From positions 51,229 to 115,228 of the forward strand of contig CAZIDK010000001.1 of assembly GCA_964537895.1 (NCBI GenBank): 64,000 nucleotides of DNA. Direction: 5' to 3'. The notes under the pieces are model-generated. The model made no database searches and was not told the origin of the DNA. It worked only from the letters and a program-made list of their open reading frames with translations. Positions within the stretch are counted from its first letter, which is position 1. Each line of letters opens with the position of its first letter. Below are positions 5,356-9,558 of the stretch, piece after piece. The translations under genes and the position numbers were made by a program. The stretch is from an uncultured Gammaproteobacteria bacterium. Lineage in GTDB: Bacteria > Patescibacteriota > Microgenomatia > Levybacterales > UBA12049.

Positions 5356-5387
5356 TACCCAACTCTTCCCGTGAATGTGGATTTGGA
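5356..5387 (-). repeat. 30-nt dispersed repeat, copy 1 (TCCAAATCCACATTCACGGGAAGAGTTGGGTA in minus sense)
   Basis: 32/32 identical to 7460-7491. Intergenic here, same orientation as the other two copies. Confidence 0.8.
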
Positions 5388-5412
5388 AAAATAATGATAC
5401 TATAATATCGCT

Positions 5413-6291
5413 ATGGAAGATCAGGAAAGATTAAAGCTTCCAAAAAAGGAAAAAACTATACCCTACGCCGTTCTTTTAGATGCTGACGGAGTAGTAACAA
5501 ACCCGTGGACAAGAGAGGTTAATCAAAAAGTAATAAATTCAGTGTTTTCTTTTCTGCAAAAAGAAATTCCTGTTTTCATAAATACGGGTAGGACTCTTGA
5601 ATGGTCAGAGCAAAATGTTCTCGTACCCTTAATGAATCTTGCTCAAAAAACAGGAACAAACAAATCAATATTTAAAAATTTTGTAATGATGGGAGAGATG
5701 GGAGTTTTCGCAGCAACTTTTGACGACCAAGGAAAAAGAACGGATTTACCTCAAGATACAAGCGTAACAGAAATACCGCCCGGTCTAAGAAAGAAAGTTT
5801 ATGACATTGTAGAAAATGGATATTCGGATACTATGTTTGAAGGTGATATGTATAAAACTATTCTTGCTCCACAAATGCAATACAACATGTCGGATGAGCA
5901 AATTCAAAAATACAAAAAAGACCAGCAAAGGCTAAAAAATGAATTGGAACCGTTTATTCCGGATAATTTTGATCTAAAATTTTCAGCGATTGCAGTTGAA
6001 ATAAAAGACAAAAAGCATGGGAAAGGAATCGGAGGAAAACGTGCTATCCAAATTTTAAGAGAAAGAAAAATCACTCCAAATCAAGTAATAACGGTAGGAG
6101 ACAGCCCGGCCGATATTAAAATGGCGGAAAAAATAAACGAGGAAGGAATAAAAGTTGAATTCGTTTTTGTCGGAGATCCGGCGAAAAGAGAAGAATTTGA
6201 TAACTTCCCTTTCCCCGTTGTGTTTACACAAAATTCTTATGACAAAGGTACAGAGGAATTTTTTGACAAATTTGCCGCTAAACTCAATTAA
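5413..6291 (+). CDS. HAD superfamily hydrolase
   Basis: Motif I LLDADGVV (DxDG) and motif IV GDSPADIKMA. TATAAT lies 6 nt upstream of the ATG, suggesting a leaderless transcript. Confidence 0.65.
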   Translation: MEDQERLKLPKKEKTIPYAVLLDADGVVTNPWTREVNQKVINSVFSFLQKEIPVFINTGRTLEWSEQNVLVPLMNLAQKTGTNKSIFKNFVMMGEMGVFAATFDDQGKRTDLPQDTSVTEIPPGLRKKVYDIVENGYSDTMFEGDMYKTILAPQMQYNMSDEQIQKYKKDQQRLKNELEPFIPDNFDLKFSAIAVEIKDKKHGKGIGGKRAIQILRERKITPNQVITVGDSPADIKMAEKINEEGIKVEFVFVGDPAKREEFDNFPFPVVFTQNSYDKGTEEFFDKFAAKLN

Positions 6292-6744
6292 CTACTCAAC
6301 TCTTCCGGTGAATGTGGATTTTGCAATAAATTCATCTACCTTTTTCTTAATTTTCCTGTATGTTTCTTCAGATTCTTTTGTTTTTTCCTCTTCGGTTTTT
6401 TGATTTCCTTCTATATCATTAATATCCCAAACTTCAAAATTTTTATTATTAAAACCTAAATTATCAACGCAAAAATCGTAAATATCTTTTTTTATAAAAA
6501 TAGTAAAATCTCCCTGATTAAGTAAGTCTTTTGTGGTTTTTTGCCAGTTGGGTTTTTCAAAAGGAACCAGATGCTCTTTTTGGATAATTCTTTGAGCACG
6601 CCAAGTTATCGGACCTCTCATATTATGGTCTGCCTCGATTCCGCTTGAAATAGCTTTAATATTTTTCAGTTTTTTTGAATTTAAATACGCCTCTGCCAAA
6701 CGGCTTCTATAGGAGTTTCCTGTGCAGATAAAGTGAATAATCAT
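6292..6744 (-). CDS. Low-molecular-weight protein tyrosine phosphatase / arsenate-reductase-like
   Basis: CTGNSYRS P-loop (Cx5R(S)) right after the start. Start moved to the ATG at 6744 (MIIHFICTGNSYRS...). The C-terminus is made of the 30-nt repeat. Confidence 0.65.
   Translation of the reverse strand: MIIHFICTGNSYRSRLAEAYLNSKKLKNIKAISSGIEADHNMRGPITWRAQRIIQKEHLVPFEKPNWQKTTKDLLNQGDFTIFIKKDIYDFCVDNLGFNNKNFEVWDINDIEGNQKTEEEKTKESEETYRKIKKKVDEFIAKSTFTGRVE
6293..6323 (-). repeat. 30-nt dispersed repeat, copy 2 (3 mismatches); encodes the last 9 codons (KSTFTGRVE*) of the LMW-PTP gene
   Basis: ctactcaactcttccggtgaatgtggattttg compared with the copies at 5356 and 7460. Confidence 0.75.
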
Positions 6745-6886
6745 TTTTATGTAAAATCTTCTGCTTTCTCTTGCGGGTTCCATCCAAATGGATTCGACAC
6801 ATCGTGGATTCTTCTTTCGTTATCTGAAACTGCGTACATCAGTACGAAGTTATTTGGAATATCTTGCGCCCCAATTATTTTTTTTA

Positions 6887-7438
6887 TTAAAGAAACGCAG
6901 TCGTTATGGGAAAGCCAGGCTGCTCTTTCTTCGAAGGGATATTTTCTGTTGAAGGTGGAGCATTACCCGGATTCACTCCTCCAAAGCGGACTGCAACAAC
7001 CTCCAGTCCCTTTGAGGCAAAATATCTTCCGAGAGATTCGATAAAAACTTTATCCGCCCCATACGGGCTATCGAGAGTTGGGATGTGATTAACTGAAATA
7101 TATGGAGGGGTTTGCCAACCATAAAAAGTATCTGCATGAATAGAACTTGCCATAATAACTCTTGGAACCTTAGCTTCTCTTGCTGCTTTATATACGTTAA
7201 AAGCCATTAAGAAGTTATCTGGGTCTATATTTTCATTTCTGAAGTTTTCCGTCTTGGAATTCCAGGCTAAGTGGATTATTGCAGAGTGGCTTTGAACAGC
7301 TTTTAGAAGTTGACTATAATCTCTAACGTCAACTTCCTGAAAGTCGATTGGGGTTATTTCGAAGTCTTTTGACAATCCTTCCTTGAGTACAGTTCCGATT
7401 GTCCCATTGGAACCAGTTATAGCTATTCTTTCTTTCAT
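6887..7438 (-). CDS. NAD(P)-dependent epimerase/dehydratase (SDR) family protein, possibly C-terminally truncated
   Basis: Rossmann motif ITGSNGTIGT and a YGADK (YxxxK) catalytic dyad, but only 183 aa. An adjacent frame downstream continues protein-like for about 40 codons, so a frameshift is possible. Confidence 0.5.
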   Translation of the reverse strand: MKERIAITGSNGTIGTVLKEGLSKDFEITPIDFQEVDVRDYSQLLKAVQSHSAIIHLAWNSKTENFRNENIDPDNFLMAFNVYKAAREAKVPRVIMASSIHADTFYGWQTPPYISVNHIPTLDSPYGADKVFIESLGRYFASKGLEVVAVRFGGVNPGNAPPSTENIPSKKEQPGFPITTAFL

Positions 7439-7458
7439 TAAGAGGAATTATACTACTT

Positions 7459-9558
7459 TTACCCAACTCTTCCCGTGAATGTGGATTTGGAGAGCATTGC
7501 TTCAACTATATTTTTTGGAACTTCTTCGTAATGGCTAGGCTCCATGTAGTAAGACGCGCGGCCCTGGGACATGGAACGAAGTGTTGTTGAGTAACCTGAT
7601 AATTCGGCTAAAGGCGCCATTGCCAAAACTATTGTTGCTCTTCCATGTTCTTCCGTTCCCATAATTTGCGCTCTTTTTGCAGACAAATCGCCGATTACAT
7701 CTCCCATAAATTCAGAAGGAGTTGTAACTTCGACTTTCATAATCGGCTCCAAAAGCGCAATTTCCGCTTTTCTTGTTGCCGCCTGCAATGCTTGGGAAGC
7801 AGCAATTTTAAAAGCGACATCGGAAGAATCAACATCGTGAAAAGACCCGTCATAAACAGTTACCTCCATATCTACCATCGGGTAGCCCAATAAAATTCCG
7901 TTTTCCATAGTTTCCTTAACACCTTTTTGAATAGAGCTGATAAACTCTGCGGGAATTGCTCCGCCTTTAATTGCGTCCACAAATTCATAACCTTCTCCTC
8001 TTGGTTTTGGTTTGACACGAAGGAAGCAGTGCCCGTATTGACCTCTGCCCCCGGATTGTTTAATATATTTTCCTTCACCTTGTGCCTCGGCTTTAACTGT
8101 TTCTTTATAGGCAACTTGGGGCGCTCCGACATTTGCCAAAACCCCGAATTCTCTTTTCATTCTGTCTACCATAACTTCGAGCTGCAACTCCCCCATTCCT
8201 GAAATTATTGTTTGATTTGTTTCGTGGTTAGTTTTAATGCTGAAAGTCGGATCTTCTTCCGATAATCTTTTAAGGGCAAGTCCCAGCTTTTCCTGATCTA
8301 TTTTGGTTTTTGGTTCAATTGCCAAGGAAATAACAGGATCCGGGAAAGAAATTTTTTCCAAAATTATCGGATTTTTTTCATCGCAAAGAGTATCTCCCGT
8401 ACCCGTATCCTTAAGCCCGACCAAGGCAACAATTTCTCCCGCGTAGGCCTCTTTTATTTCCTCCCTGTGGTTTGCATGCATCAAAAGAATGCGTCCGACT
8501 CTTTCCGTTTGATTTTTAACGCTGTTATAAATATAAGAACCAGCTATGGCTTTTCCCGAATAAACTCTAAAATAGGTTAATTTTCCAACATGAGGATCAA
8601 TTTGAATTTTAAAAGCCAAACCGGCTAAAGGCTGTTCCAAATCCGGTCCTCTTTTCTCTTCTTCGCCTGTTTTTGGATTGTAACCTGTTACCTCTCCAAC
8701 ATCTAAAGGCGAAGGAAGATAATCAATAACAGCATCTAAAAGCGGCTGAACACCCTTGTTGCGAAGTGAAGAACCGGCAAAAATGGGCACCAATTTATAA
8801 GCAATAACCGCTCTTCTTAACGCGGCTTTTAATTCATCATCTGAAATTTCATGACCGTGGAGATATTTATCCGTAAGAGCATTGTCTGTTTCGGAAATCT
8901 TTTCAATTAACTTGTGCCTGTATTTTTCAACTTCCGTTTTCATGTCTTCGGGAATATCCGTAACTTCAAATTTTGCCCCCAATTCGTCTCCGCCCCAAAT
9001 ATAAGCTTTCATTTCCATTAAATGAACAATTCCTTTAAACGAAGATTCAACTCCTATTGGCAAAACCATAATAAGAGTATTTGCGCCGAGTCTGTCTTCA
9101 ATTGACTTTACCGTTGCCAAGAAATCTGCTCCCAATTTATCCATTTTGTTAACAAAACAGAGCCTTGGAACATGATATTTATCAGCCTGTCTCCAAACGG
9201 TTTCGGATTGAGATTGAACTCCTTCTTCCGCATCTAAAACAGTTATTCCTCCATCGAGAACTCTTAAAGAACGCTCAACCTCTGCTGTAAAATCAACGTG
9301 ACCCGGAGTGTCAATGATATTTATTCTGCAATCTTTCCAAAATGCGCTTGTTGCCGCACTAACAATAGTAATTCCTCTTTCTTTTTCCTGTTCCATCCAG
9401 TCCATTACGGTTGTTCCTTCGTCGATATCACCGATTTTGTAGGTTTTACCCGTATAAAAGAGAATGCGTTCGGTGGTAGTTGTTTTTCCCGCGTCAATAT
9501 GGGCAATAATGCCTATATTTCTAATTTTATCGAAATCAAAATGTCTTGTTTCCGCCAT
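7459..9558 (-). CDS. fusA: Elongation factor G
   Basis: [17 protein letters not shown] and NKMD GTPase motifs; full-length EF-G homology (699 aa). Confidence 0.95.
7460..7491 (-). repeat. 30-nt dispersed repeat, copy 3; encodes the last codons (KSTFTGRVG*) of fusA
   Basis: Identical to the copy at 5356-5387. Confidence 0.8.

Follow-up and report, generated by a model that had tools for sequence, protein, structure and literature searches.

In Dehalococcoides, unrelated genomic islands stand in tandem at the ssrA gene, each with a 20-bp direct repeat of the 3' end of the gene, and the region they form is highly variable between strains (PMC3146451). An integrase module is carried by 16 of the 31 islands, and for some islands without integration genes, mobilisation in cis or in trans has been proposed (PMC3146451). 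These islands, and more generally the tandem accretion, at the 3' ends of conserved genes, of integrative elements or cis-mobilisable elements (CIMEs), are the closest known analogue of the system considered here, an array of short repeats and small gene cassettes behind fusA, the gene for elongation factor G (EF-G). The array lies in a 64,000-nt stretch of a Patescibacteriota genome of the Levybacterales (contig CAZIDK010000001.1, positions 51,229 to 115,228; hereafter the window) and has counterparts in other Levybacteria. Comparison of these sequences gives good support to the view that the fusA end is a precise, reusable insertion site, with differing cargo across related genomes. As at ssrA, the target is a single-copy, essential, translation-related gene, and several unrelated units follow it in tandem, bounded by short repeats of its 3' end. 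In contrast to the ssrA islands, the target is the end of a protein-coding gene and not of an RNA gene, the cassettes are very small (0.36–3.7 kb, one to four genes), an integrase module is present in 0 of ~12 arrays, cargo genes are sometimes translationally fused to the repeat, and the host is a bacterium of the candidate phyla radiation (CPR).

Other described systems share some of these traits. Like integrons (intI-attI-[ORF-attC]n), the fusA arrays consist mostly of single-gene units without a recombinase of their own, each followed by a copy of the site; there is one fixed chromosomal insertion site, and open reading frames (ORFs) can run into it. The fusA repeat also holds a GTTGAGT or GTTGGGT heptamer that fits the GTTRRRY core, for which ~6% is expected by chance. 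However, no intI was found near the fusA arrays, and where attC is a variable imperfect palindrome of at least 57 nt, the fusA repeat is one 20–30-bp sequence identical to its target, without hairpin potential; cargo lies in both orientations, often with its own promoter-like sequence. An integron was rejected, as neither intI nor a tyrosine recombinase was found in the window or beside any array, and so was an attC site, the copies with their flanks folding no better than shuffled sequences and offering just the 7-nt GTTRRRY match. Integrative mobile elements exploiting Xer recombination (IMEX) and dif modules likewise lack their own recombinase, form tandem arrays and have direct repeats of ~28–30 bp, and a housekeeping Xer is present in Levybacteria. 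Unlike dif, the fusA site lies inside a coding sequence beside ribosomal-protein operons, shows no change of sign in GC skew, has weak arm symmetry and does not resemble what we take to be the dif consensus. Hence, a dif or terminus site was discarded (the site is coding, and the cumulative GC skew falls monotonically over 1–13 kb with no switch at 5.3–7.5 kb), as was a dif-like 11-6-11 layout, the arms of which match at 7/11 positions in the window variant and 5–6/10 in the consensus, near chance. For some archaeal casposons, the insertion site is the 3' end of the gene for aEF-2, the archaeal EF-G homologue. As with these and other target-site-duplicating elements, insertion at the fusA arrays affects the 3' end of an elongation-factor gene, the target is duplicated, and the outer copies are identical and of host type. 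In contrast to casposons, the arrays have no Cas1 or PolB gene, no terminal inverted repeats at the cargo ends (the best local inverted-repeat scores are 5–11 of 60) and a duplication of variable length, 19–54 nt, where that of casposons is fixed at 14–15 bp; a transposon or casposon was rejected on the last two grounds.

CPR/Patescibacteria have tiny genomes with few recognisable mobile elements, and little is understood of how they acquire accessory genes. In the literature searched, no insertion site at the fusA end was described for CPR bacteria. Such a site, precisely defined and recurrently used inside the str operon, with metabolic, toxin-antitoxin-like and ribosomally synthesised peptide cargo, would provide a testable handle on gene flow in these bacteria. 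In a survey of Patescibacteria, predicted islands often include tuf and rpsL (PMC12455944), and insertion at the fusA end may explain these neighbourhoods.

Copies of the fusA end in the window and in relatives

The sequence-only reading, made from the letters of the window, had reported a repeat of about 30 nt in three copies of one orientation, and the copies (c1, c2 and c3; Table 1) lie where it placed them. A 32-mer, TCCAAATCCACATTCACGGGAAGAGTTGGGTA (minus sense), matches exactly at c3, the fusA end, and at c1, whereas c2 (6293–6324) differs from it at 4 of 32 nt (3 over the 31-nt stretch quoted earlier); a 25-nt core with one degenerate position matches exactly at all three sites. In shuffled sequence, neither the 32-mer nor the degenerate core found a match in 100 trials, and no fourth copy was detected elsewhere in the 64 kb. 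The copies all share the strand of fusA, and the block said to be ~6 kb that contains them measures 5.97 kb from the fusA stop to the tuf start. Translation confirms that the repeat supplies the last codons of both fusA and the gene for a low-molecular-weight protein-tyrosine-phosphatase (PTP). The copy c1, described as intergenic and identical to the fusA copy, is both: it is untranslated, with an in-frame TAG five codons upstream, and itself ends in TAG. Over 32 nt, c1 and c3 agree throughout and are both of host type at three lineage-specific positions (TCC, ACG and GGG). The copy c2, which differs from c3 by T/G, C/A, G/C and G/A, is of the clade-consensus type, unlike the window's own type, and the fusA tails of eleven other genomes are closer to it than is the window's own fusA tail.

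The KSTFTGRV ending is native to fusA, a point on which the sequence-only reading had called for a comparison of relatives. The 120 best EF-G homologues are 85–97% identical, those that are named come from Levybacteria or Patescibacteria, which places the window in Candidatus Levybacteria, and all 120 end in ...ML[AS]KSTFTGR[VI]E or a minor variant of it. When one genome per species was scanned, the same tail was found at 80 or more fusA-bearing loci, at which the third codon positions vary as much in the tail as in the conserved codons before it; conservation of the tail at the DNA level was rejected on this ground. Because synonymous sites vary freely, the tail is conserved as a peptide and not as DNA, and copies within a genome that agree at these sites are therefore real duplications and not the product of shared constraint. 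Among PTP homologues, 10 of 85 have the tail, two more have a decayed version and the others end in diverse C-termini of their own; decay is seen in locus L140 and in the database proteins P0249 and P0251. Hence, the KSTFTGRV ending of PTP is secondary, and in annotation a C-terminal KSTFTGRVE on PTP or M16 peptidase genes would be better regarded as an insertion scar than as a native motif.

These data also bear on the notion that KSTFTGRV(E/G) is a C-terminal tag selected independently in EF-G, PTP and other proteins, or that the 30-mer is a 3' RNA element or terminator, which we consider scarcely credible. The tail is under protein-level selection in EF-G, and PTP and an M16 peptidase are translated through it, but most of the extra copies are untranslated, with stop codons just upstream, which effectively refutes a tag for these copies, and the few PTP homologues with the tail, together with its decay in some of them, argue in the same direction. 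As for RNA, the folds have z-scores of +0.41, -0.36, -1.53 and -0.47, no better than shuffled sequences, no terminator-like site was found at the copies, and Rfam matched only a tRNA in 5200–10000, even at E <= 1. The conserved 3' RNA element, named earlier as an alternative, was rejected on the folds and the lack of an Rfam match.

The specificity of the repeat was assessed with each genome's own last 20 fusA nucleotides as a probe, allowing up to 3 mismatches, at 95 non-redundant loci, 74 of them with at least 1 kb of downstream sequence; copies were sought near fusA, in 8-kb blocks. Further copies were found at 8 of the 95 loci, all downstream of fusA and on the same strand, while the controls gave 1 match in 430 kb of upstream sequence and 0 on the opposite strand. 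The sequence-only reading would have been contradicted by a repeat without positional bias or by relatives that carry the same block without repeats; the blocks examined show a clear bias, and no such relatives were found. A metagenome scan with a pattern limited to TAG stops yielded 11 loci, and a looser pattern would yield more arrays. In every copy, the right border is the stop codon, the third base of which already belongs to the flank. In contrast, the left border is ragged, with copies of 19–20 nt in L127, 29–35 nt at most loci, 38–39 nt in L125 and L040, and ~54 nt, including a one-codon indel, in L137. All copies have approximately TCACNGGAAGAGTTGRGTA in common.

Across Levybacteria, the distance between fusA and tuf ranges from 673 nt to more than 7 kb, and several loci represent the empty site. 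In L078, the fusA tail (...GTTGGGTAG) is immediately followed by TTTGACATTGTTGTT... and the gene for a 137-aa membrane protein, which is the flank that follows c1 in the window; a promoter-like site stands directly after fusA, arranged as it is after c1, and the membrane-protein gene is the first gene after fusA. The two loci are ~91–92% identical at the DNA level on both sides (91% over 1309 nt on the membrane-protein side), and the window exceeds L078 by 2104 nt, which comprise one tail copy and the epimerase, PTP, c2 and HAD sequences. L036, L130 and L132 have empty sites as well. In L137 and L138, fusA with its tail is followed by an intact epimerase gene and PTP with the tail, an arrangement collinear with the window (1206 nt, 78.7% identical); L129 has the same epimerase gene 18 nt after fusA and then the start of the PTP gene, and L139 and L140 have fusA with its tail followed by PTP with the tail alone. 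A HAD homologue was found in none of the fetched fusA loci. Thus, the epimerase (SDR)/PTP and HAD segments are indeed separate, variably present units, as had been suggested for checking.

At least eight other Levybacteria loci carry unrelated cargo between the fusA tail and a downstream copy. The cargo is a 111-aa ORF in L001 and a 158-aa ORF in L123, which have no protein or DNA similarity to each other, although the junctions and the downstream neighbour are the same. It is a DUF3800 gene in L107 and a 168-aa ORF in L067. At L040+L011, a DUF5678 gene and a protease-like gene are followed by a copy and then by a 114-aa ORF and PTP with the tail. Two partial tail copies are present in L127 and three copies in L140, and toxin-antitoxin-like genes are among the cargo at fusA junctions. 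In L131, the cargo is a 3.7-kb cluster of the thiazole/oxazole-modified microcin (TOMM) type, the M16 peptidase gene of which ends in the tail. This cluster of ribosomally synthesised and post-translationally modified peptide (RiPP) genes looks complete (433–4048), with a 74-aa Cys/Gly/Pro-rich precursor-like ORF, a SagD/YcaO cyclodehydratase, a SagB dehydrogenase and the M16 peptidase, and is unusual for a CPR genome.

The copies also differ in apparent age and origin. Little or no difference separates the paired copies of the window (c1 and c3), L131, L067, L001 and L107, whereas PTP-linked copies are 3–7 positions off the resident fusA tail and one is decaying. Because the pairs range from identical to this degree of difference and decay, insertion must be a long-running process in which copies are not maintained indefinitely. 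In 6 of 11 cases, the distal copy is matched at least as well by the fusA tail of its own genome as by that of any other, and in L067 both copies share rare variants. In both three-copy arrays compared (the window and L040+L011), the inner copy is of foreign type and the outer copy of the genome's own type, which would fit cassettes that arrive with a copy of their own. Since c1 and c3 are both of host type, either the donor was conspecific or insertion duplicated host sequence; the identity of c1 and c3 is weakly informative, because only 1.5–3 differences are expected between them at L078-level divergence.

Proposed insertion at the fusA end and its alternatives

We favour, at a probability of roughly 0.6, the view that cassettes were inserted one after another in a site-specific manner, the last 20–30 bp of fusA being the att-like site. 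The reusable attachment site would be this gene end (...TTCACNGGAAGAGTTGRGTA, ending in the stop codon), and each insertion would place its cargo directly after the stop codon and leave the cargo bounded on its distal side by a further copy of the fusA end. In this way, fusA would stay intact, and a co-directional last cargo gene could read into the distal copy, as PTP does. In the window, cassette 1 would consist of the epimerase pseudogene, PTP and c2, and cassette 2 of the HAD gene and c1, with c1 retaining the ancestral stop codon, promoter and membrane-protein gene. The mobile unit would be the cargo together with one tail copy. The insertions would be catalysed by a site-specific recombinase, which would have to act in trans, as the cassettes encode no such enzyme. 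The exchange could be conservative, by such a recombinase in trans, or duplicative, by staggered cuts, or could consist mainly of homology-driven spread after rare founding events.

Serial integration with duplication of the attachment site was the explanation given in the sequence-only reading, and tail duplicates at the cassette borders, the empty site and the varied cargo sustain it, whereas the integrase that it implies was not found. Of the traits looked for in att-flanked elements or CIMEs, direct repeats that copy the target 3' end, downstream and in the same orientation, are present at 8 of 95 loci, empty sites in L078, L036, L130 and L132, and unrelated cargo in L001 and L123; a cognate integrase in some of the elements at the site was not detected in the window and 144 loci with approximate queries. 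The right junction is invariant and common to at least eight unrelated cargos, which argues for enzymatic precision over random breakage filtered by selection, and the restriction of the copies by strand and position is likewise consistent with an att site. Several points weigh on the other side. Apart from the housekeeping Xer at L023, the cassettes, the 64-kb window and the ~95 fusA loci yielded no recombinase. Dyad symmetry at the site is weak (CAAATC...GAGTTG, 5/6, read from the sequence), the ragged left border fits variable att identity blocks and is not diagnostic, and the confinement of copies to the fusA end holds for the 8-kb blocks near fusA in which they were sought. Moreover, reciprocal exchange with a foreign attP predicts hybrid copies, whereas c1 and c3 are both of host type, a weak argument. 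An attempt to place the crossover point from copy polymorphisms was likewise abandoned, as the few variable positions fit no single fixed crossover unless the donors were conspecific.

An unlikely account, though one to be taken seriously, requires no dedicated recombinase. Natural transformation and RecA would bring in the cassettes, with fusA as a long homology anchor and the 20–50-bp tail copy as a short portable homology, and integration would be homology-facilitated or proceed by Campbell-type single crossover of circles that arise from tail-by-tail recombination. A left border of variable length is what homology patches rather than a fixed site would produce; no recombinase was found, the outer copies are of host or conspecific type, and whole modules are common to genomes with ~79% DNA identity. 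However, the right junctions all fall exactly at the stop codon, and 20–30 bp of homology usually just suffices, or falls short, for efficient exchange by RecA. Also, homologous recombination would move cargo that is flanked by tails but would not account for the arrival of at least eight unrelated cargos between tail copies.

The search for an enzyme and ORF-X

If insertion is site-specific, as we favour, an enzyme would be expected. phmmer searches with XerC, XerD, lambda Int, TnpR resolvase and phiC31 Int (approximate sequences) against all ORFs of the window and 144 loci returned only the housekeeping Xer family, a result that distant recombinase families could escape. In Pfam scans of the cargo genes and larger window ORFs, no recombinase or transposase was identified. 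An integrase or recombinase near fusA in relatives, for which the sequence-only reading had advised a search, was met at L023 alone, where a tyrosine recombinase gene is convergent with fusA and 12 nt away. This candidate was rejected as a housekeeping Xer, the homologues of which are 75–84% identical across Levybacteria and normally located by divIC, and was probably brought beside fusA by rearrangement. Viral contigs, searched for a phage or plasmid with attP, yielded two matches, both due to chance (AGT-Ser met the pattern). Two further candidates were set aside. For a diversity-generating retroelement, Pfam found no reverse transcriptase among ORFs of at least 100 aa in the rpsG–tuf stretch and 20 ORFs in 24–59 kb (ORFs at 19.4–22.8, 25–27 and 59.4–63.9 kb were left out), and the mismatches between c2 and c3 are not confined to template adenines; a CRISPR reading was also rejected.

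In the subclade nearest to the window, a gene of 160–270 aa, here called ORF-X, faces fusA in convergent orientation. ORF-X adjoins or overlaps the fusA stop in the empty-site genomes L036, L130, L132 and L120 (by ~22 nt in L120) and the distal copy in the occupied genomes L001, L011, L123, L131 and L127, and the codons of its conserved C-terminal QLFP motif lie antisense to those for ...TGRV... in the tail. The reading frames of ORF-X and of fusA or the tail overlap by ~20 nt in L120 (3872–4675) and L131 (4029–4772). As ORF-X and fusA can share DNA, an insertion that keeps both intact therefore has to duplicate the shared segment. Some ORF-X homologues carry the QLFP motif twice, and these doubled motifs are perhaps relics of tail duplications. 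Four of 13 homologues match DUF4365 (best E-value 3.7e-6), and the alignment contains an invariant D...K-S, the pattern of PD-(D/E)xK nucleases; a profile of ORF-X gave no significant match to solved structures, and none to a known recombinase. A role of ORF-X in insertion is only a lead, because the window and L067 have arrays and lack ORF-X.

ORF-X is the candidate enzyme in two further schemes. In the first, an improbable one, cassettes would be captured as in integrons, without an integron integrase: the last 20–30 bp of fusA would be the acceptor, a cassette would be one to four genes with one copy, and a previously undescribed enzyme, acting in trans, would carry out both insertion and excision. 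The second, quite improbable, is duplicative insertion, in which a site-specific nuclease or integrase would make staggered cuts flanking the fusA end, the cargo would be ligated, and gap repair would copy the host segment. The presence of host-lineage variants on both sides of the cargo, with c1 equal to c3 over 32 nt and the same situation in L067 and L131, is in keeping with such a duplication, as are the position of ORF-X (at the fusA stop in empty-site genomes, at the distal copy in occupied ones), its DUF4365 matches and its invariant residues. Yet the identity of c1 and c3 says little at the 1.5–3 differences expected, the duplication is not of constant length, terminal inverted repeats are lacking at the cargo ends, no solved structure or known recombinase matches ORF-X significantly, and the window and L067 have arrays without it. 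Should the enzyme behind site-specific insertion prove to be new, the 20–30-bp site could serve as a targeting tool in organisms that have no genetics yet.

Features of the window and neighbouring sequences

In the direction of fusA, the genes of the window are rpsL, rpsG, a 292-aa ORF with a tRNA-like gene, and fusA with c3, followed by the epimerase/SDR gene, PTP with c2, the HAD gene on the opposite strand, c1, a promoter-like site and the 137-aa membrane-protein gene; beyond these lie a 222-aa ORF, GDPD, ASCH, GNAT and histidine-phosphatase genes and tuf. Coordinates are given in Table 1. The epimerase gene is frameshifted: in tblastn, residues 1–173 of the L137 protein align with 7438–6923 and residues 139–231 with 7028–6750 in another frame. 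The window PTP is identical to a 150-aa database protein (P0241), and the HAD stop codon is 1 nt from the stop of c2.

Table 1. Positions in the window of the three repeat copies and of the genes and sites around them
Feature	Coordinates	Strand	Basis
c3: present fusA end (10 codons and TA of the TAA stop), cargo directly after	7460..7491	-	sequence
c2: TTGCA-AAATCCACATTCACCGGAAGAGTTGAGTA; last 10 codons and stop of the PTP gene	6293..6326	-	sequence
c1: untranslated, identical to c3, ends TAG, then the ancestral fusA downstream flank	5356..5387	-	sequence; L078 alignment
fusA (EF-G, 699 aa), target gene; last codons form the repeat	7459..9558	-	ORF, translation, homologues
Epimerase/SDR pseudogene, putative first gene of cassette 1	6750..7438	-	Pfam Epimerase; tblastn with intact 231-aa L137 epimerase
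Low-molecular-weight protein-tyrosine-phosphatase, putative second gene of cassette 1	6292..6744 (ORF 6292-6783)	-	Pfam LMWPc
HAD-family hydrolase, putative cassette 2, opposite to fusA	5413..6291	+	Pfam Hydrolase_3/HAD
Promoter-like TTGACA-17-TATATT, starts 3 nt after c1, upstream of the membrane-protein gene	5325..5353	-	11/12 consensus matches
137-aa membrane-protein gene, marks far side of the insertion	4738..5151	-	92% identical L078 homologue

Several neighbouring sequences have features of their own. The 222-aa ORF (4100–4768, plus strand) has an unusual Arg/Gly/Asp-rich composition, locally raised GC and an internal 57-nt tandem-like repeat (4374–4416 and 4431–4473), and no Pfam match was found for it; it is 91% conserved in L078 and 47% in L043, where it lies on the opposite strand, 30 nt from the fusA stop. 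Upstream of fusA on the minus strand, a tRNA gene (9806–9907, considered with 9745–9774) has a CAU anticodon and a 28–32-nt insertion in the variable region; Rfam scores it at 51 bits and ARAGORN missed it. Its 5' end overlaps the last codons of the 292-aa ORF (9893–10771; no Pfam match), and a 19-nt exact repeat, AGTTGAACGAATTGTTAAC, occurs inside the tRNA insertion and again ~100 nt downstream, past a terminator-like hairpin. L001, the EF-G of which is 97% identical, has neither this ORF nor the tRNA, and there rpsG abuts fusA. The arms of a 42-nt inverted repeat (1656–1697 and 10862–10903, 81% complementary) lie upstream of tuf and just downstream of rpsG, so that they bracket fusA and the whole variable block. 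The S12 protein (11390–11896, minus strand) has a C-terminal Ala/Pro-rich extension of ~30–40 residues relative to what we take to be the usual S12 length.

A second repeat family, with the motif RRGAAGTCARATTA, occupies 21895–24099 (plus strand), in five same-strand copies against 0.17 expected. The copies separate small modules, labelled from their translations alone as an alpha/beta-hydrolase-like ORF, a 68-aa antitoxin-like ORF and an apparent toxin-antitoxin pair, and the family may represent another cassette array with its own separator. Two of the copies share 50 nt at 84% identity, and a GC-rich 52-nt segment beside one copy recurs 18 kb away at 98% identity (22806–22857 and 40877–40928).

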